Below are positions 7,827 to 21,843 of a stretch of DNA of 64,000 nt, in pieces (positions within the stretch are counted from its first letter, which is position 1; each line of letters starts with the position of its first letter). The DNA comes from a bacterium. Lineage in GTDB: Bacteria > Zhuqueibacterota > Zhuqueibacteria > Residuimicrobiales > Krinioviventaceae. The stretch spans positions 1,760,001 to 1,824,000 of the forward strand of contig OY843751.1 of assembly GCA_963693055.1 (NCBI GenBank), given 5' to 3'. Under the pieces are notes generated by a model. The model did not search any database. It was not told the origin of the DNA and was given only the letters and a program-made list of their open reading frames with translations. The translations under genes and the position numbers were made by a program.

Positions 7827-9002
7827 ATGCGTTACATAATAACAATCTTAATCGTGATGGTTTTATTTGCAATATCATATTCAGATACAAACCCACTTTA
7901 TGTAAAAGCAAACAAAAGTGATTTTGACCAAAATCCTGCTTTGCTTGAACGTATTATAGATTCACCTCATGGATATTTTAGATTTATTAATATAGAATTT
8001 AGTCAATATATTTGCGAGCATTTTAAAGATATCGTTGAACAGGCCCCATCTTTAAATCTGCATGGTGATGCGCATCTTGAACAATATGCTGTAACTGATC
8101 TGGGTAGAGGTTTGACAGACTTTGATGATTCTTCTACCGGCCCCGGAATAATTGATTTAATGCGTTTTATAGTTTCTCTCCGCTTAACCTGTTTTCAGCT
8201 TGGGTGGGAGGAAAGGACTGAAGAGTTGGTTGACGAGTTTATTTTAGGTTATATTAATTCGCTTGATAAGCCTGAATTGGTTCCACAGGAACCGGATATA
8301 GCCAAACACATCAGAACAGAATTCAAACACGACAGAGATGCGTATTTTGATTGGATTGATTCAATAATGCTCCCCATGCCACAGACAGAAAAAGACTCTA
8401 TAATTGTTGCTATGGGCTTTTATGTTGAAACATCATTGATGGATAATCCTGATTTGAACAGAGATTTTTATGATGTTATCGATATGGGTTATCTCAAAAT
8501 GGGAATTGGAAGTGCTCTTGATTTAAAATATGTTGTTCGTGTTAATGGCAGTACAGATGAACCTGATGATGATATTGTGCTCGAAATAAAACAGGTCAGG
8601 GATCTTACCGGAATAGATTGTATTCAAACCGGGCAAAAACAGGATCCTTTCAGAATCCTTGTTGGGCAGTCTCGCATAGCATATGAGCCTTTTCATCATT
8701 TGGGTTATTTTCGTTTCAGGAATATGAATTTCTGGGTACATTCATGGGTAGACAATTATAAAGAATTATCAATAGATAAAAGCTATACATATCCTTCAGA
8801 GTTAAAGCAGGTTATTTATGATGTAGGTGTTCAATTAGGTAAAGGTCATGTTAAGCATATAGCAGCCCCTTTTGATCTGCATGTTAGACTTGAACAGATT
8901 AATCTGGTAGCAAAAAACAAAGAGAGAATTCTACGCGAAAGTAAAATTCTCTCTCAAAATGTGATAGACGCCTGGAGATTATTTAAAAGATCTATAGAGT
9001 GA
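7827..9002 (+). CDS. DUF2252-family kinase-like protein with signal peptide
   Basis: HGDAHLEQY, TDFDDS, GIGS, LEIKQ motifs; hydrophobic N-terminus MRYIITILIVMVLFAISYS. Confidence 0.7.
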   Translation: MRYIITILIVMVLFAISYSDTNPLYVKANKSDFDQNPALLERIIDSPHGYFRFINIEFSQYICEHFKDIVEQAPSLNLHGDAHLEQYAVTDLGRGLTDFDDSSTGPGIIDLMRFIVSLRLTCFQLGWEERTEELVDEFILGYINSLDKPELVPQEPDIAKHIRTEFKHDRDAYFDWIDSIMLPMPQTEKDSIIVAMGFYVETSLMDNPDLNRDFYDVIDMGYLKMGIGSALDLKYVVRVNGSTDEPDDDIVLEIKQVRDLTGIDCIQTGQKQDPFRILVGQSRIAYEPFHHLGYFRFRNMNFWVHSWVDNYKELSIDKSYTYPSELKQVIYDVGVQLGKGHVKHIAAPFDLHVRLEQINLVAKNKERILRESKILSQNVIDAWRLFKRSIE

Positions 9003-10103: not shown

Positions 10104-12806
10104 TTATTTTAACATATCACGCAGAACGGTTTGTAAAATACCTCCCTGACGGTAATATGTGATTTCAACAGGTGTATCCAGGCGCAGTGTTACAGTGAAT
10201 GATGTTGTTTTACCGGTCTCGTCTACTGCATTAACATTAATTCCCTGCATGGGTTGCAAATCGTTTGTCAGTTGAATGGAATACTGTTCATAACCTGTAA
10301 GGCCCAAAGATTTTGCCGATTCGTTTTCATTGAATTGTAGTGGGAGAACTCCCATTCCTACCAGGTTACTCCGATGGATACGTTCAAAACTTTCAGCAAT
10401 TACTGTTTTTACTCCCAGCAACAAGGTCCCTTTGGCAGCCCAATCTCTTGAACTTCCCGTGCCATATTCTTTGCCAGCCAAAACAACCAGGGGAGTATTT
10501 TCTTTTTTATACATTTCTGCGGCATCATATATCCACATTTGCTGCTTTTCCGGCAAGTGTAATGTTACGCCACCTTCAGTGCCCGGAGCCAGGAGGTTTT
10601 TTAAACGAATATTGCCAAACGTGCCCCGTACCATAATTCTGTCGTTTCCGCGTCTTGATCCATAAGAGTTGAAATCTTGAGGTTCTATTCCCATTGATTT
10701 AAGGTATGTAGCCGCAGGACTGTCTTCAGGAATGGCCCCGGCAGGAGAAATATGGTCTGTAGTTACAGAATCACCCAATAACGCGAGAACACGTGCATTG
10801 TAGATTGAAGAAATGGGTTCGGGATTGGGTTGCATATCGATGAAAAAGGGCGGTTCCTGAATGTAACTGGAATCTGCCTGCCATTGATATAATGCTGAAG
10901 TAGTAACAGGGATATCATTCCATTGCTGGCTATAAGAATTGACATCAGCATACATTTTTTTAAATACTTTAGCGTCAGCAGCTTTTTCTACATAAGAAAG
11001 GATTTCTTTTTGTGTTGGCCAAATATCTTTGAGATAAACGGATTCACCAGAAGACGTTTTACCCAGTGGTTCGTTTTCAAGATCCACATCTACGGTACCG
11101 GCAATTGCATAGGCAACAACCAACGGAGGAGATGCAAGATAATTTGCTTTTGTATAGGGATTAACCCTGCCTTCAAAATTACGGTTACCACTCAAAACAG
11201 AAGCTGCAACCAGATCCTGTTCTTTGATAGCGGATGAAACTGCTTCTGGCAATGGACCACTGTTGCCTATACAGGTTGCGCAACCATAACCCACCGTGTG
11301 AAATCCGAGTTTTTCGAGGTATTCAGTCAGTCCTGCTTTGTCCAGATAATCTGTAACAACTCTAGAACCAGGAGCCAGGCTGGTTTTAACGTAACCCGGG
11401 ACTTTTAATCCTTTTTCTACTGCTTTTTTGGCCAAAAGACCTGCCCCCAGCATGACTGATGGATTGCTGGTATTTGTACAACTGGTAATGGATGCAATTA
11501 CCACCGAACCGTGTTTTAATTCATAGCCACCATTCATGTCAAGAGATGCTTTACGTGTAAGGTCTTTGTCTTCCAGACTAAATCCACGTTTTTCAGCGGG
11601 AGCTGTTAAAATATCTTGAAATGTTTTTTTCATATCGGAAAGGTTGATACGATCCTGAGGGCGTTTGGGACCGGCAAGACTGGGCACAACATCACCCAGA
11701 TCCAATTCTATGGTATCTGAGAATTCAGGATCAGGTGTTTGGTCTGTACGGAATAATCCCTGTTCTTTTGTATAGCGTTCTACAAGATCAACAAGATCAT
11801 CTGAACGACCAGTGCGACGTAAAAAGTTGAGGCTTTCGTTATCCATTGGGAAAAATCCCATGGTTGCACCATATTCTGGTGCCATATTGGCTATTGTTGC
11901 CCGGTCTGGTAAACTCATGCTGCCTACACCCGGACCATAAAATTCTACAAATTTGCCTACAACGCCTTTTTGTCTCAACATTTCTACAACTTTGAGTGCA
12001 ATATCAGTTGCGGTTGCACCTTGTGGAACAGCACCGGATAGTTTGAATCCTACCACTTGCGGTGCGAGCATATAAAGGGGTTGGCCCAGCATAACTGCTT
12101 CTGCTTCAATTCCACCAACACCCCAACCCACAATACCCAAGCCGTTGATCATGGTTGTATGTGAATCGGTTCCTACAAGACTGTCCGGATAGACCAGTGT
12201 TTCAGTTCCTGAATTGTCTGTAAATACGCCTCTGGCAAAATATTCCAGGTTTACCTGATGAATAATACCAACACCGGGAGGGACAACACCAAATTTTTTG
12301 AATGCCTGTTGACCCCATTTGAGGAATTCGTAACGTTCGCGGTTACGTTTAAATTCTAAATCCATATTAAATACGAGAGAACGTGCTTCGCCAAAACTGT
12401 CTATCTGTACAGAATGATCAATTACCAGATCGCAGGGGATGAGGGGTTCGATCTTTTGTGGATCTCCGCCCAGTCGCTTCATTGCTGAGCGCATTGCAGC
12501 CAGGTCAACCAGAGAGGGTACACCGGTAAAATCCTGCAGAATGACTCGTGCTGGTTTAAAAGGAACTTCTTTTAAAGAAGGATTAGATGCCTGCCATTGC
12601 GCAAGGTTGAGAACATCCTGCTCATTTATTATGGAATTGTCACAATTACGTAAAACAGATTCCAGTAATATTTTAATACTGAAAGGAAGTTTGGAAACTG
12701 CAATACCACTTTTATTTTCCAATGCTTGTAACGCGTACATGTACGCGGTGCCCCCGGCTGTTTTAATGGGAGATTTTGCGTCAAAAGAATTTTGTTTTAA
12801 AGACAT
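10104..12806 (-). CDS. acnA: aconitate hydratase A
   Basis: [48 protein letters not shown]. Confidence 0.98.
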
Positions 12807-15954: not shown

Positions 15955-15994
15955 TAAAAATCACATCCGGCCAGCGTATATTCTGACCGGATGT
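15955..15994 (-). terminator. probable terminator after isocitrate dehydrogenase gene
   Basis: minus strand ACATCCGGTCAG-8nt-CTGGCCGGATGT followed by GATTTTT. Confidence 0.6.
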
Positions 15995-16012: not shown

Positions 16013-17209
16013 TCAAGCAGTATATTGTTTGTATTTTTCGTCTAGATCAGGCAGTTGAACTGTTTCCAGGATGTAATCGCAGAATTCACGTCCGGTTACG
16101 CCATTGTCACGACCAGTAATGATCATTTTTTTCTCAAATTGCTGGCATATTTCAAGAGCTTTGCCAAGTTGATCAGCTTTTTCAATGTATCCGATATGTT
16201 CAAGCATCATTGCTGCGGCACGGATCAGGCTTGAAGGATCTGCATATTTCCCGCGTCCTTCTTTAATCATACGAGGAGCTGAACCATGAATTGCTTCAAA
16301 CATTGCATAACGTTTACCAATATTAGCGCTTCCCGCGGTACCAACGCCACCCTGGAATTCAGCAGCTTCGTCAGTTAAAATGTCACCATAGAGGTTGGGA
16401 AGAACCATAACCTTAAACTGGGTGCGGCGTTTGGGGTCAACCAGCTTGGCGGTCATAATGTCAATATACCAACCTTCCCATTTAACATTGGGATAATCTT
16501 TAGCTACGCGCTCAGCAGTTTCAAGGAAAAGACCGTCAGTTGTTTTTACAACATTGGCTTTGGTTACAACAGTAACGTCATTCAGGCCTGTTTTATGTGC
16601 GTAATCAAATGCCATACGAATGATACGCTCTGCACCTTGTTTGGAAATAACCTTAAAGTCCATTGCAAGGTCATCAGTTACCATAAGGCCTTTACTACCT
16701 AGCACATAGGCACCTTCAGTGTTTTCACGAAAGAAAGTCCAGTTCAAGCCTTCTTTTGGAACTTTGACCGGGCGAACATTGGCAAACAGGTCCAGTTCAC
16801 GACGCATAGCAACATTTGCGCTTTCAATGTTGGGGTAGGGCCCGCCTTTTTCCGGAGTTGTTGTTGGCGCTTTAAGGATGACGTGACATGCTTTGAGCTC
16901 TTTCAGAACATCATCTGGAATTGCTTTCATATGCTCAACACGATTTTCAATGGTCAAACCTTCAATGGGTGTGAATTCAAGTTTGCCTTTGGCAATTTCA
17001 TCTTTGAGAAGAATCTCTAAAAGGCGTTGGGTTTCCTGAGAAATGATGGGACCTATGCCATCTCCCCAGCAGAAACCGATTTTGATTGGTGATAATTTAC
17101 TATAATCAATCCAGTCTTCAGCTTGTTTCATCTTTTCTACGCGTTCAAGCTGTTCCGCAATCAGTGTTCCTAGATGTTCTTTTGCTTTTTCAATTGCTTT
17201 TTCACTCAT
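16013..17209 (-). CDS. icd: isocitrate (or homoisocitrate) dehydrogenase, beta-decarboxylating dehydrogenase family
   Basis: GDGIGP, SANVAMRR (IDH-type S-x-N-x3-R), FRENTEG, NLYGDILTD, FEAIHGSAP; clustered with citrate synthase and aconitase. Confidence 0.75.
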   Translation of the reverse strand: MSEKAIEKAKEHLGTLIAEQLERVEKMKQAEDWIDYSKLSPIKIGFCWGDGIGPIISQETQRLLEILLKDEIAKGKLEFTPIEGLTIENRVEHMKAIPDDVLKELKACHVILKAPTTTPEKGGPYPNIESANVAMRRELDLFANVRPVKVPKEGLNWTFFRENTEGAYVLGSKGLMVTDDLAMDFKVISKQGAERIIRMAFDYAHKTGLNDVTVVTKANVVKTTDGLFLETAERVAKDYPNVKWEGWYIDIMTAKLVDPKRRTQFKVMVLPNLYGDILTDEAAEFQGGVGTAGSANIGKRYAMFEAIHGSAPRMIKEGRGKYADPSSLIRAAAMMLEHIGYIEKADQLGKALEICQQFEKKMIITGRDNGVTGREFCDYILETVQLPDLDEKYKQYTA

Positions 17210-17241: not shown

Positions 17242-17754
17242 TTAATAAACATTTTGGTCATCGGAAAAATCTTTGCGATCTTTTTTATATATATAAAAAC
17301 GCTCTTTTAAGGTATTTAATTCATTTTGAATATCCAAAGTTTTAGAAACATAATATTTGGCAAAGTTGTCTCTTGCGACAGCAAATGCCCTGTTACATTC
17401 CGTTAATAATTCCACCAGTTCTTCAGATAAAGGATAGCAAGTGGTAAGCATACTCCAGAATTCATTCTCAAATATACGGATGGCTTTTTGTACTTCTTCC
17501 AATGTATAGCCTTCATTTGAGCGTTTGTTTGCAAGATTTTCCATATATTGAATTAATGGTTTGTCATCACAATCGGCAATTACTTTGAGCATTATATCAA
17601 GAAATTCTTCTTCGCGTTCCTGATGACGTTCAAAGTCAATAATCTCATAATGTGATTCTGACATTTTTTGCAGTTTATTACAAATTCTGTTTATCAGATC
17701 ATCGCGGTGTTCTTTGATGACACGTTTGAGATTACTGTTTGTGCAGTGTGTCAT
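17242..17754 (-). CDS. small all-helical protein, RsbRD_N / globin-like sensor domain
   Basis: LANKRSNEGYTLEEVQKAI pattern typical of RsbR N-terminal-like domains, plus C-terminal coiled coil; recognised by eye only. Confidence 0.55.
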   Translation of the reverse strand: MTHCTNSNLKRVIKEHRDDLINRICNKLQKMSESHYEIIDFERHQEREEEFLDIMLKVIADCDDKPLIQYMENLANKRSNEGYTLEEVQKAIRIFENEFWSMLTTCYPLSEELVELLTECNRAFAVARDNFAKYYVSKTLDIQNELNTLKERFYIYKKDRKDFSDDQNVY

Positions 17755-19624
17755 GCTTTTTGATTCTCCTGTTTCTCCGTTTCAGTTGCTCTTCAATTCT
17801 GCCAATGATACGCTGCGAATATTTACTGTATTCTTTGCCCATGCTTTCAGACTCTTTTTCCAATCCTTTTTCTATTGTAGTTATAAAGTCTTCAATGCTT
17901 TTTGCGGAAACGGGTTTGGGCTTGTCGGCCCATTTAAAAAGCATTGCTTCTATGGGTTCAAAATAATCCGGTTTTGGTAAAGTGTTACAAGATTTAAATG
18001 GATATGGATTTAATTCTTGCTGAAATCCCTTTAACGCCATGATTAAAGGCTGATAATCATATTCATAAAACAATCTGGAAAATTGGTATTCTACAACAGG
18101 AGTCCATTTGTTATCATCTGGTACTGTATGGTGTTTGTTTAATCGCGAAAAATTGAGCCCGGTTTCTTCGTGATCAATTTCCCGTTGATGAATACGCATT
18201 TCCCTCAAAATACCATTCCTATCTTCACGCAAGTCACCACCAAGTAAAAGGAGACAGAGGAAATAATCCGGATTATCAATTTCTTTAAATTCTTGATTTG
18301 GAGGTAACTGTATACTGAGATGCAGGCTGTGCGGTTTGATGTCTAAGTATCTAACCGCCAAATCAATCATTTGGGAAAGTACCCAGGGGTCCTGGGTTGC
18401 GGGTTTGGATACATCTCCCAGTAATTTATACCTTCCAAAAGCTAGTTCAAGAAAGCCACGGGTTCTGACGTTTGATGATGTCAGGAATCCATGATCATCC
18501 ACATGTGCACCAAGTTTCCACCCTCTGCGCATGATATCAAATTTATAGAAATAATAAAAAGAGTCGTAAAGCGGATCTTCACCTTCTTTGGAATTTACAG
18601 CACGATAACCGATATTGGAAAATTCCAGTTCTGCTCCCAATGGTAGGGAGCCAATGTGACGATTCTTTTTAAGCCATTTTACTATTTCGTCTGCTTTGGT
18701 GGGGTCATACAATTCTTCTGCAATGATTATTGCGGCAGCAGCATAGTCTGTATATAAAATATCAGGATTGTATCTGTCTACTTCCAGGTGAGAAATAGCA
18801 CTGGATAAATGTTGCTTTTGATTGACCAGTAGCTTTAGCGCCATTGTAGCAGAAAGGGTGTGGATGTAAAACTCGTCTGCAACATTTACCTGGCCCCTGT
18901 AATCATTCCTGAATTTTTCTTCAAGTTGATTAAATATCATGAAATTGAGTGCAAGCTTCATGTAATTGTCTGCATACTTTATTGCTTTTCTGTCGGTCTT
19001 TAACCAATTCAAGCGGGGAATGCTAGCTTTTTCTATTTCATGTTTGATAATAAATGCAGGAATACCTGTGTCTTGAAAATATTGGCGTAAAATGCTATGC
19101 ACTTCTTCAGAAAGCAATTCTCTTGTTACTTTGAGCGGAAGAGATTCTCGATCATAATTGAGCAGCATGTCTGCTTTTTGTTCAACATAGCGGTTTACAT
19201 TGCTTTCAACAAATTCTTCAATACGGTCCCGTTCCTGGAATCCTTTGTCGATATATGGCTTTATAGATCTGGGCTTGCCAATATATACAAAAGAATCAAT
19301 TACTTTATCATTAACTTGAATTTGGGCAACTTTGCGTTTATACAAACTGCCTTCGGCCTCGTAAGCATCGAGTTTTTCTAGTATATCTGGTGTTACATTG
19401 TACAGAACCCTGCCCTCAATGCTGTATCCTTTCCAGGGAAGCGCAAAGGTAAAGCTGTTTTCCGGTTGAACACGACGGTGATTAATTAACAAACCTTTTT
19501 CACTCAACAGTTTGGTACCCGTCAGCAATTCCAGATAATAATCATTATTCAGAGAACCATAAACAAATACTTTGTCTATGGTTTTCCAATCAATCTTTTC
19601 TGTTTTCTTATCTTTTGCGCTCAC
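17732..19624 (-). CDS. gamma-glutamylcyclotransferase (AIG2/GGCT) domain fused to putative carboxylate-amine ligase domain
   Basis: N-terminal VFVYGSL...LDAYE..LYKR (GGCT); C-terminal LGAELEF, FLELAF, HSLHLS, VVEYQ resemble GS/GCS2/amidoligase motifs; GTG start overlaps upstream TGA. Confidence 0.7.
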   Translation of the reverse strand: MSAKDKKTEKIDWKTIDKVFVYGSLNNDYYLELLTGTKLLSEKGLLINHRRVQPENSFTFALPWKGYSIEGRVLYNVTPDILEKLDAYEAEGSLYKRKVAQIQVNDKVIDSFVYIGKPRSIKPYIDKGFQERDRIEEFVESNVNRYVEQKADMLLNYDRESLPLKVTRELLSEEVHSILRQYFQDTGIPAFIIKHEIEKASIPRLNWLKTDRKAIKYADNYMKLALNFMIFNQLEEKFRNDYRGQVNVADEFYIHTLSATMALKLLVNQKQHLSSAISHLEVDRYNPDILYTDYAAAAIIIAEELYDPTKADEIVKWLKKNRHIGSLPLGAELEFSNIGYRAVNSKEGEDPLYDSFYYFYKFDIMRRGWKLGAHVDDHGFLTSSNVRTRGFLELAFGRYKLLGDVSKPATQDPWVLSQMIDLAVRYLDIKPHSLHLSIQLPPNQEFKEIDNPDYFLCLLLLGGDLREDRNGILREMRIHQREIDHEETGLNFSRLNKHHTVPDDNKWTPVVEYQFSRLFYEYDYQPLIMALKGFQQELNPYPFKSCNTLPKPDYFEPIEAMLFKWADKPKPVSAKSIEDFITTIEKGLEKESESMGKEYSKYSQRIIGRIEEQLKRRNRRIKKHDTLHKQ

Positions 19625-20988
19625 TCTACCTTGTCTGCGAAATAGAGTTCAAACTGCTTCATCATTTCCTCAGGAGAAATTGAAGTTACCCGACCATTTT
19701 CATATTGCTCTTCAACCCATTCAAATATCTTTGCAACCTGAGGATTTCTCTTGTCTACAGGAGGTAAACCACGTTTTTTAAGTTCACGGTTTACCCAAAA
19801 ACCTACGCCTGCTATTCCGGAACGATTGGTAAGATTTACACCAATTGGCCGATTTAATACTTTATCCGTATCAAAAATGTTATAAATTTCTTCATTTTTA
19901 ATCACACCATCGGCGTGAATTCCTGCCATTGTAACATTAAAGCGTTCACCTACAAAGGGATAGTTGTTGGGTATTACAGTACCTATCTCTTTGAGGTATT
20001 CTGCAATTTCAGTGATAGCGGTAAGATCCATTCCGTTAGTGCCGCCTGTTAGAGAGGCATATTCTACTGCCAGTGCTTCTACCGGAGAGTTACCAGTCCT
20101 TTCACCGAATCCAAGAATTGTACCATTTACTCCTGAAACACCGGACAACCATGCCGTGACTGAATTTGCATGAACTTTATGAAAGTCATTGTGTCCATGC
20201 CATTCGAGGTTCTCTGAGGTGATGCCTACTTCACGCTGTAAAAAGTATGCAATCTTGCGAATAGAGCGCGGAAGTGCTACACCGGGATAGGGGAGTCCGT
20301 AACCCATTGTATCGCATAAGCGGATTTTTATCTTTAATCCCGACTTTGCTGAAAAGTTCATTAATTCTTCTGCAAAGGGAACAACCGTACCCCAGAAATC
20401 GGCACGGGTAATATCTTCAAAATGGCATCTGATGGCTTCCAGACCTGCATCAGCGGCTGCCTGAACAACACCCATAAAAGCATCCAATACCTGGCGACGT
20501 GTTTTTTTAAATTTCATAAAAATGTGATAATCGGATATAGATGTCAACATACCGGTTTCTTTAATGCCCACACTTTTCACAAGTTCAAAATCAGCAGGAT
20601 TAGCGCGAATCCACGAGGTAACCTGTGGAAATTCCAACCCTTTGTTGCGAACTTCTTCAAGAATTTCTCTATCCATTTCCGAATAAATAAAGAACTCGGA
20701 TTGTCGAATTACACCTTTGGGTCCCGAAAGTTTGCTGATAAGATCAAACAGCTTTGATACTTGCTCGGGTGTATAGGGGGGACGCGCCTGTTGTCCGTCT
20801 CTAAAAGTTGTGTCCGTAATCCAGATATCTTTAGCAGGCTTGGCGTCTACTATTTCACCGTCAAATACGGTTTTGGGAATCTCGGAATAGGGAAATATAT
20901 CACGCATCAAGTTTGGTTCTTGAACATCGATCAAAGGATGTTTTTGTTGTTTTGATAAAATTCTCCAGTCAGAATTCACTTCAGCCAT
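19621..20988 (-). CDS. Re-citrate synthase (DRE-TIM/LeuA-like family)
   Basis: IWITDTTFRDGQQ, IRQSEFF, CHFEDITRAD, WHGHNDF, GERTGN, AGIHADG as in clostridial/Syntrophus Re-citrate synthases; no LeuA regulatory domain; AGGAGG SD. Confidence 0.85.
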   Translation of the reverse strand: MAEVNSDWRILSKQQKHPLIDVQEPNLMRDIFPYSEIPKTVFDGEIVDAKPAKDIWITDTTFRDGQQARPPYTPEQVSKLFDLISKLSGPKGVIRQSEFFIYSEMDREILEEVRNKGLEFPQVTSWIRANPADFELVKSVGIKETGMLTSISDYHIFMKFKKTRRQVLDAFMGVVQAAADAGLEAIRCHFEDITRADFWGTVVPFAEELMNFSAKSGLKIKIRLCDTMGYGLPYPGVALPRSIRKIAYFLQREVGITSENLEWHGHNDFHKVHANSVTAWLSGVSGVNGTILGFGERTGNSPVEALAVEYASLTGGTNGMDLTAITEIAEYLKEIGTVIPNNYPFVGERFNVTMAGIHADGVIKNEEIYNIFDTDKVLNRPIGVNLTNRSGIAGVGFWVNRELKKRGLPPVDKRNPQVAKIFEWVEEQYENGRVTSISPEEMMKQFELYFADKVE

Positions 20989-21101: not shown

Positions 21102-21773
21102 TTACGGTTCTTGAACTTCGGTCAGATATTGTAACGCATCAATAATTTTGCTATTATTGGGGCTGAGTTCGAGACCATGTTTGTATGCGTTAATCGCTTC
21201 AGGAATACGTCTTAGACGGTAATAGACGTTTCCAAGATGATAGTAAACACGTGAATCTTCACTACCAATCTTTAATAACTCTTCAAGATGTTCCAAAGCG
21301 CAGTGGTAGCATTGTTCTTCAATGCAGGATAATGCAGCATGATAATGTGCCATGGGTGAATCTGCTTTTTTCTCAAGCAATGTTTCAAAAGCCTTGCGGG
21401 CTTTGTGATATTTGCCAAGATGCCAGTATGTCATGCCCAACCAGTAATATGCCATTAGCATTTCAGGAGCTAATTCAATTACTTTTTTTAGAGCATTTTT
21501 TGCATCCCAGAGCTTTAGTTGGCGATAATGAGAAACACCTAGATAGTAATATGCGTAGGGGAGTTCCGGATTAACTATAATGGCTTTTTCAAAGACTTCA
21601 ATTGCGGATGAAATCTTGCCTCGTAAATAATAGCCATTTCCCAGCATTAATAAAGATCGTATGTCTTGTTCATCAGTATTGACTGTTTGTTCAAGCTGTT
21701 TCATTAATTCATCCAACTGGGATGAATTCATCATGTCCATCGATTCCGGCAGATTAATATCAGATGTAGTCAT
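21102..21773 (-). CDS. tetratricopeptide repeat protein
   Basis: about five TPR units (LGNGYY, AYYYLGV, AYYWLGM, YYHLGNVYY); GGAG SD favours ATG 21773 over GTG 21806. Confidence 0.85.
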   Translation of the reverse strand: MTTSDINLPESMDMMNSSQLDELMKQLEQTVNTDEQDIRSLLMLGNGYYLRGKISSAIEVFEKAIIVNPELPYAYYYLGVSHYRQLKLWDAKNALKKVIELAPEMLMAYYWLGMTYWHLGKYHKARKAFETLLEKKADSPMAHYHAALSCIEEQCYHCALEHLEELLKIGSEDSRVYYHLGNVYYRLRRIPEAINAYKHGLELSPNNSKIIDALQYLTEVQEP

Positions 21774-21814
21774 ATCGTTATGCTCCCATATATCTTTATA
21801 ATCCACTGCTTAAT

Positions 21815-21843
21815 ATAATAATGTGTTTCTGAATTAATGTCAA
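21815..21843 (-). promoter_or_regulatory. sigma70-type promoter for TPR gene
   Basis: TTGACA-N17-TATTAT on minus strand. Confidence 0.6.

Follow-up and report, generated by a model that had tools for sequence, protein, structure and literature searches.

We analysed a 64,000-nucleotide stretch of a Zhuqueibacterota genome (GenBank assembly GCA_963693055.1, contig OY843751.1, positions 1,760,001 to 1,824,000; hereafter the window). One of its genes joins a gamma-glutamyl cyclotransferase (GGCT) domain, through a helical middle region, to a domain predicted to have the fold of glutamine synthetase (GS)-type carboxylate-amine ligases. It is probable that the two end domains carry out a ligase-plus-cyclotransferase cycle of some kind. 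More tentatively, this one chain may write and erase a gamma-glutamyl tag on a protein acceptor, regulating the Re-citrate synthase (Re-CS) route to glutamate. The gene is present as a single copy in the complete 6.5-Mb genome and is laid out as follows.

17732..19624, minus strand: GGCT-middle-ligase gene, 630 amino acids, GTG start
19250..19576, minus strand: GGCT domain, residues 17-125 (Pfam PF06094)
18659..19249, minus strand: all-helical middle region, residues 126-322, from the full model; residues 269-304 are part of the predicted docking surface
17735..18658, minus strand: GS-fold carboxylate-amine-ligase-like domain, residues 323-630, from the predicted model and conservation

A homologue search returned 215 proteins, of which 120 were taken up; 114 were aligned with the query to give 115 rows, leaving out one near-identical and five partial rows. 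Full-length homologues, at least 115 in number, are 33-70% identical to the 630-residue query, and 30 full-length fused representatives were chosen at the 50% level (30-58% identity). The carriers belong to mostly uncultured lineages, including KSB1, KSB3, Zixibacteria, Lentisphaeria, Auribacterota, Poribacteria, Desulfobacterota, and others. The motifs from which the initial annotation drew its idea of a combined gamma-glutamyl writer and eraser lie where it placed them (VFVYGSL at 19-25, LDAYE at 85-89, LGAELEF at 329-335, FLELAF at 391-396, HSLHLS at 432-437, and VVEYQFSR at 510-517), and their conservation across the 115 homologues indicates that they are not chance matches. Residues 326-545 are the best conserved, with 77 of 220 columns at least 90% conserved, compared with 17 of 111 in the GGCT domain. 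The middle region has conserved N232-Q-x-E235 and D293-Y motifs; a structural search with it gave no fold match beyond Z 5.7, and the ESM Atlas gave no usable match.

The GGCT/AIG2 assignment of the N-terminus, made earlier from motifs, is borne out by the Pfam hidden Markov model for GGACT (PF06094), which matches residues 19-118 (E 2e-14). At 54.6 bits against a cut-off of 22.8, this is the only above-cut-off Pfam match in the protein. As in other GGACT/AIG2-like cyclotransferases, the YG[ST]L loop is kept (Y22 and G23 in 111 of 115 rows, the other four being gaps), along with the catalytic Glu. Residues D86, E89, G92, R97, and Y114 are invariant (115/115). In a profile alignment to 3jub, Glu89 pairs with the Glu of 'DDFES' in human GGACT, whose E82Q mutant has structure entry 3jud; by family alignment, Glu89 is the likely catalytic Glu. 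Unlike other PF06094 members, this domain is fused to a putative writer.

The C-terminal half was assigned by structure prediction. The full-length model, with a predicted local distance difference test (pLDDT) score of 91.6, splits into the GGCT domain (17-125), the helical middle (126-322), and the C-terminal domain (323-630), and the last, folded alone from a 76-row alignment, scores 90.8. The initial annotation had expected a GS or COOH-NH2 ligase-type fold here, to be sought with AlphaFold and Foldseek, and the predicted model does match PafA, Dop, and GshA. Foldseek gives PafA at E 4e-5. In VIA-align, PafA leads with Z 15.2 (root-mean-square deviation 4.3, 251 aligned), followed by Dop (14.7), GshA (13.8), GshF (13.4), YbdK (12.9), and then glutamine synthetases. 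Among the 48,161 chains compared, the top 19 rows all belong to the GS-fold ligase superfamily (Z 15.2-6.1), and the next, unrelated row scores 4.1. Guanido kinases fall far lower than PafA (McsB Z 4.0, arginine kinase 3.1), and the domain, unlike them, has the GhExE motif that distinguishes carboxylate-amine ligases from guanido kinases (PMC2588565). The nearest ESM Atlas clusters are those of COOH-NH2_lig (PF14395), at 0.93. Altogether, residues 322-630 are predicted to adopt a GS-type carboxylate-amine ligase fold. At the sequence level, Pfam and NCBIfam scans of the 630-residue protein found no ligase-family match (NCBIfam nothing at all), and neither did Pfam with 76 copies of the C-terminal domain (Amidoligase_2 and COOH-NH2_lig none at E up to 1, PF03136 none) or sequence and profile searches of the PDB.

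Relatives of 420-490 residues lack the GGCT domain and stand alone, and their cultured carriers include Desulfurispirillum indicum, with Selin_2111, and Flexistipes sinusarabici, with Flexsi_2188. A separate GGCT gene adjoins the stand-alone ligase in 23 of 32 metagenome loci, 20 convergent and 3 tandem; of the nine loci lacking such a neighbour, three end within 135 nucleotides of the ligase gene. Five genomes in a sample of 281 Desulfobacterota have two intact stand-alone copies, one of which adjoins a GGCT gene in four genomes and, in the fifth, ends the contig. Because the split forms keep a GGCT gene alongside, the ligase and GGCT domains are, judging from gene layout, coupled and working together in three arrangements: fused, convergent neighbour, and tandem neighbour. 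The split loci also lend independent support to the pairing of writing and erasing that the initial annotation proposed.

Three other features of the split loci may be recorded here. The GGCT partners of stand-alone ligases (L095:6167-6877 and 17 similar) carry a C-x3-C-x5-C tail plus C-G-[NQ]-W in 18 of 18 cases, possibly a metal or Fe-S sensor. Directly upstream of one stand-alone clade lies a 160-residue protein (L096:629-1114 and 13 similar rows) whose strongly conserved terminal helix bears E-K-[YF] and which finishes in R-G-D-Y; it is possibly a docking partner or acceptor. At loci L104, L111, L116-L121, and L124, the stand-alone ligase and GGCT genes lie beside an acetyl-CoA synthetase gene, in most cases with an exonuclease-like gene and a cNMP-CBS-DUF294 gene as well.

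The active site was defined from Iyer et al. 2008 (PMC2588565) and from a PafA homologue. The initial annotation had asked whether the ExE, Glu, and His residues are conserved among homologs, and they are kept across the 115 fused rows and the stand-alone rows. Invariant in all 115 are G330, E332, E334, D376, H378, E393, H432, S433, E475, R477, H498, F515, and R517; H435 (114), E512 (113), and Q514 (97) are nearly so. Strand 1, G330-A-E332-L-E334, reads GhExE, with each Gly and Glu in every row, and the acidic residues D376 and E393 lie on predicted strands 373-376 and 391-396. R477 occupies the loop before strand 5. Eight core residues (E332, E334, D376, E393, H435, R477, E512, and R517) are present in 41 of 41 stand-alone rows, a set that includes duplicates, and in at least 113 of 115 fused rows; 23 of the 30 fused representatives keep all eight jointly. 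The stand-alone rows also show a PafA-like Y-x-D (41/41) and H-x-N (39/41). Each of the six positions that are likely metal ligands is kept. D376 matches the position of the PafA/Dop aspartate proposed as catalytic base (PMC3511204) and is likely to have that role here. An aromatic segment at 350-372 is also highly conserved.

Several features weigh against reading this domain as an active ligase. An hhalign comparison with a four-row PafA/Dop profile returned nothing (probability 0.04), and the residue equivalences to known ligases follow motif order on predicted strands rather than superposed coordinates. Strand 4, H435-x-S437, has Ser at 437 in 111 of 115 rows where the superfamily has [HD]-x-[NH]; the Asn so frequent in stand-alone rows occurs in 5 of 30 fused representatives. 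Strand 6 reads E512-x-Q514-x-x-R517, without the Arg and Asp of E-x-[RK]-x-x-D, so the alignment upholds the earlier remark that the last motif is non-canonical. E512 is lost in 7 of the 30 representatives, all of which retain the GGCT Glu. Two proteins, P0151 and P0154 (one named Phycisphaerae), lack E512, D376, E393, and H435, have thus lost most catalytic residues, and are likely pseudo-ligases with a decayed ligase site and a retained GGCT Glu.

The arginines of strands 5 and 6 are, by alignment, rearranged: strand 5 is R494-x-N496-x-H498, with R494 in 105 of 115 rows and R496 in the stand-alone forms (41/41), in a register set by motif order. A non-canonical strand 6 does not by itself mean inactivity, because PafA and Dop also lack an Arg at E+2 and the six metal-ligand positions are kept. 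The PafA strand-6 variant is [QH]-x4-D (Iyer 2008, PMC2588565), and the PafA homologue likewise has no Arg at E+2. The departure in strand 6 sets the protein apart from described ligase families, not from the GS fold. The reading of the protein as a GGCT domain paired with a GS-fold ligase, writer and eraser in one, is therefore supported by alignment and by the predicted model: the C-terminal half is predicted to be GS-fold, and its acidic and His residues are conserved.

The genes around the ligase gene offer a metabolic context. The operon runs TPR, Re-CS family, GGCT-middle-ligase, globin-like, and isocitrate dehydrogenase (IDH)-like, with AcnA nearby.

19621..20988, minus strand: Re-CS-family gene, short form without Cache domain, 455 amino acids (Pfam HMGL-like)
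17242..17754, minus strand: gene for a small RsbR-N/RsbRD_N-like globin-fold protein, 170 amino acids (Pfam Rsbr_N, E 5e-5, under cut-off)
16013..17209, minus strand: IDH-like gene (Iso_dh E 1e-65; NCBIfam matches under cut-off)
21102..21806, minus strand: TPR protein gene, likely first of the operon (Pfam)
21815..21843, minus strand: sigma70-like site upstream of the TPR gene, best of the region (11/12)
15963..15994, minus strand: terminator-like hairpin past the IDH-like gene
10104..12806, minus strand: aconitase AcnA, beyond a lutABC-like block (NCBIfam above cut-off)

The ligase gene overlaps the upstream Re-CS-family gene by 4 nucleotides and the downstream globin-like gene by 23, and the IDH-like gene starts 32 nucleotides past the latter. 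The Re-CS-family protein is 53-55% identical to five proteins annotated by JGI as citrate (Re)-synthase. The genome also encodes a member of the Si-type citrate synthase family (G000:C1:4494864-4496039), so two unrelated citrate synthases coexist in it. Sigma70-like sites overall are at chance (42 versus 40.4), only the position of the listed one being suggestive, and hairpins are at chance level too (11 versus 11.6). A DUF2252 kinase-like protein whose N-terminus is hydrophobic and signal-like (window 7827-9002, plus strand) converges on the operon end.

In anaerobes, Re-CS opens the oxidative route to 2-oxoglutarate and is sensitive to O2 (PMC12016533). Over the best 80 of 101 GTDB loci, Re-CS was called in 37, IDH in 27, aconitase in 26, a TPR protein in 19, and the small globin-like gene in 32. 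For 38 of the other 43 carriers, Re-CS lies elsewhere in the genome, giving 75 of 80 carrier genomes in total. In the phylum of the window (133 genomes), the ligase occurs in 27 genomes, Re-CS in 29, and both in 27; in Verrucomicrobiota (301 genomes), the corresponding numbers are 17, 22, and 16, each time on different contigs. A distant ligase clade also adjoins a short Re-CS (G638). In the Desulfobacterota sample, Re-CS was found in 149 of 281 genomes and the fused ligase in only 2, one of which is the seed genome. The link is one-way: carriers nearly always have Re-CS, and genomes with Re-CS often lack the ligase.

Two observations on neighbouring genes concern single clades. At L031, L035, L036, L039, L045, and L075, the ligase is preceded by GcvH, a LarA-like gene, an FAD oxidase gene, and in some cases a lipoate ligase gene, and is followed by a GlnD-like nucleotidyltransferase gene of more than 900 codons. 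In the KSB3 loci L013, L016, L019, and L027, a 130-residue protein of no family is encoded after the small globin-like gene.

The form of Re-CS differs as well. Carriers have a short Re-CS in 72 of 75 cases, while about 138 of the 149 Desulfobacterota enzymes are long and, by length, Cache-type; none of the long-form genomes has a fused ligase. A C-terminal Cache domain was confirmed in all six long Desulfobacterota enzymes scanned, and 29 of 30 long Re-CS carry a partial version of the amino-acid-binding Cache motif (as defined in PMC8915833), R-x-W-[FY]...[YF]...D, in which the first Tyr is missing. This cytoplasmic domain is likely an allosteric ligand site, judging from the motif, and a full-text literature search found no paper matching it. 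The complementarity between short or long Re-CS and the ligase counts as weak evidence.

A further clue is a predicted partner. The complex of the ligase protein with the 170-residue globin-like neighbour scores 0.79, against 0.36 for the best of three controls. In calibration, which is rough here with our own alignments, 116 of 157 solved pairs attained the mark for this score, as did 2 of 215 mismatched ones. Between runs, at least 95% of contacts coincide, and the partner has pLDDT of at least 85. Its conserved H35, F153, and Y156 contact the middle region at 269-304 and residues 425-431, 465-471, 518-522, and 613-620, with no catalytic residue among the listed contacts. By GS and PafA geometry, we take this patch to be the glutamate-entry end of the cradle. 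All 31 ligases that have the partner carry Tyr or Phe at position 520, against 5 of the 41 that lack it, and in three of the four groups without a partner the interface columns have diverged more than the remaining columns (fractions 0.0001, 0.0035, and 0.011 of random column sets). The predicted complex supports binding of the neighbour to the ligase protein. The small partner is dispensable. A universal partner was considered and rejected: among 46 genomes picked mostly for lacking an adjacent copy, the small protein was found in one, which was the positive control. The 27 aligned copies have no conserved Pup-like C-terminal Glu or Gln (G-[EQ] end). Both this docking partner and the tie to Re-CS had been overlooked in the initial annotation.

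We propose the following model. With ATP and Mg, the C-terminal domain would phosphorylate free glutamate on its gamma-carboxyl and then couple it to an amine, D376 probably acting as the base. Removal of the tag, as 5-oxoproline, would fall to the GGCT domain, as its family and catalytic Glu suggest. Free glutamate is favoured over a Pup-like protein as donor because 5-oxoproline can be released only from a tag whose alpha-amine is free. In carriers that have it, the globin-like neighbour may dock at the glutamate-entry end of the cradle and tune the balance between writing and erasing, a sensor step that we include because of the predicted complex and the co-erosion of its interface. The acceptor would most likely be a lysine of a pathway enzyme, Re-CS first; this is the weakest step. 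Glutamate could then be both signal and tag, by analogy with the converter enzymes GlnD, GlnE, and AceK, in which one chain holds opposing activities and acts with a regulator protein in a central-metabolism context. The likeness to these three is architectural only, since folds and tags differ. In its most specific form, in which a PafA-like writer, a 5-oxoproline eraser, and a docked sensor reversibly mono-gamma-glutamylate a protein lysine and throttle an Re-CS that lacks a built-in Cache sensor, the model is rather unlikely.

A number of observations tell against regulation of Re-CS by such a protein modification. Carrier genomes share kinship and are not independent, so Fisher tests were not used. 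No Re-CS was found in any of nine genomes with stand-alone ligases. The short/long pattern largely follows lineage (1 of 6 short versus 0 of 138 long without the seed genome), and the idea of a single Re-CS subtype in carriers is ruled out, as their enzymes do not form one clade. A ligase-specific lysine on Re-CS, K162, seemed promising with 13 negatives (92% versus 31%) but faded with 42 (69/75 versus 23/42) and was rejected. The partner is missing from many carriers, standing beside the ligase in those 32 of 80 loci, and the fourth partner-less group shows no erosion of the interface (fraction 0.90). Characterised GGCT-fold enzymes are known to act on small molecules. Two other Re-CS positions, Y230 and L306, also seemed to discriminate with 13 negatives and faded with 42.

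The fate of 5-oxoproline bears on all readings. Neither of the known 5-oxoprolinases, PxpA and the OplA-type enzyme, was found in the genome of the window. PxpA occurs in 0 of 50 carrier genomes and the OplA-type enzyme in 0 of 27 carriers of the same phylum, and 35 of 106 non-carriers have one or the other (carrier and non-carrier counts include one unpublished genome each, G170 and G173). Their absence from carriers fits a low, regulatory flux, with the counterpoint that both are also missing from nine ligase-negative genomes of the same order. The genome inventory disposed of three other roles. Glutathione synthesis was rejected, with no GCS2 or GshA family member in the genome; replacement of glutamine synthetase, with a GS-III-sized GS and glutamate synthase present; and a LysW-free aminoadipate route to lysine, with DapB present, LysW not found, and the aconitase being AcnA.

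How else could the protein work? The acceptor may be a small molecule, such as an amino acid, polyamine, or other amine, whose gamma-glutamyl amide would be made and broken as a signal, nitrogen store, or protected intermediate in cells that reach glutamate through Re-CS. For GS-fold ligases encoded next to AIG2/GGCT genes, Iyer 2008 (PMC2588565) predicts chemistry on peptides or metabolites. GshA, GshF, and YbdK are close in the fold ranking, the aromatic segment is conserved as for a substrate lid, and no acceptor lysine was found on Re-CS. Lentisphaeria neighbours include an ArgA-like acetyltransferase and a glutamate racemase (9 of 80 loci each). However, high flux would waste glutamate, as no known 5-oxoproline recycling enzyme was found, and no transporter, dehydrogenase, or tailoring gene recurs next to the ligase gene across the 80 loci; on balance, this explanation is not very likely. 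We give little credence to the GS-fold domain being a glutamate- or nucleotide-binding sensor or scaffold, leaving the work to the GGCT domain and the docking partner. The non-canonical arginines of strands 5 and 6 would suit such a role, as would the degenerate members that keep the GGCT Glu and lose ligase residues (the seven without E512, and more in P0151 and P0154). Against it stand the eight core residues, the likely catalytic Asp among them, which occur together in most fused representatives and all stand-alone rows.

Two further possibilities invoke related chemistry. In a glutamate salvage route, the GGCT domain would free 5-oxoproline from gamma-glutamyl amides, and the GS-fold domain, as a new 5-oxoprolinase, would use ATP to phosphorylate the lactam oxygen. 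The lack of known oxoprolinases in carriers, the missing Arg at E+2, and a gene context of glutamate supply agree with this, and Dop can phosphorylate an amide oxygen (PMC8599861). Yet the nine ligase-negative genomes mean that the mutual exclusion is confounded by lineage, and the docking sensor would be unexplained. Nor is any GS-fold oxoprolinase known, and we regard salvage as quite improbable. Protein tagging in the manner of Pup, or deamidation in the manner of Dop, with the small protein as tag, has two points in its favour: the fold search ranks PafA and Dop first, and the predicted docking site of the small protein lies at the cradle end used by Pup. It is nevertheless very improbable: the small protein is dispensable and has no conserved C-terminal Glu or Gln, and the Pup-ligase family (PF03136) has no member in the genome of the window and one in only 3 of 40 carriers. 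In addition, a glutamyl group with its alpha-amine tied up in a peptide bond is not open to cyclisation by GGCT chemistry.

Among known systems, PafA and Dop (PF03136) share with this protein GhExE, a strand-2 Asp (Y-x-D in stand-alone forms), H-x-N/S, the loop Arg, the lack of an Arg at E+2, and, by prediction here, the logic of writing and erasing gamma-glutamyl amides. Unlike them, it is only 8-10% identical, has no Pfam match and no Pup or proteasome link, and carries Arg517 instead of the late Asp; its eraser is the fused GGCT domain, which implies a free glutamate donor. Amidoligase_2 (PF12224) and COOH-NH2_lig (PF14395) offer a GS-fold ligase paired with a GGCT gene, but none of the 76 copies here matches their Pfam models. 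The ligase-like domain here is, moreover, fused with a 200-residue helical middle region, chromosomal, tied to Re-CS, and predicted to dock a globin-like protein, and no relatives were found in viral contigs. GshA, GshF, and YbdK have the same fold (Z 13.8-12.9) and metal-ligand pattern; here, in contrast, there is no Pfam match and no E-x-[RK]-x-x-D. By its predicted fold the protein belongs with the GS-fold ligases, but it lacks the Pfam match and the strand-6 motif of every named ligase family. Pairing of a GS-fold ligase with AIG2-GGCT was predicted in 2008 for another family, without a substrate (Iyer, Burroughs, and Aravind; PMC2588565). A full-text literature search, with thin coverage of subscription journals, found neither a paper on the fused GGCT-ligase family nor a description of a regulatory system for Re-CS.

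The fused family appears to consist of unannotated GS-fold enzymes spread over many mostly uncultured lineages. In it, the ligase and GGCT pair share a single polypeptide, which is encoded in a defined metabolic operon and has a predicted partner. Should the acceptor be a protein, this would be a new modification and a new regulatory system for Re-CS. Reversible mono-gamma-glutamylation of a protein lysine, if true, would be a new post-translational switch in bacteria.

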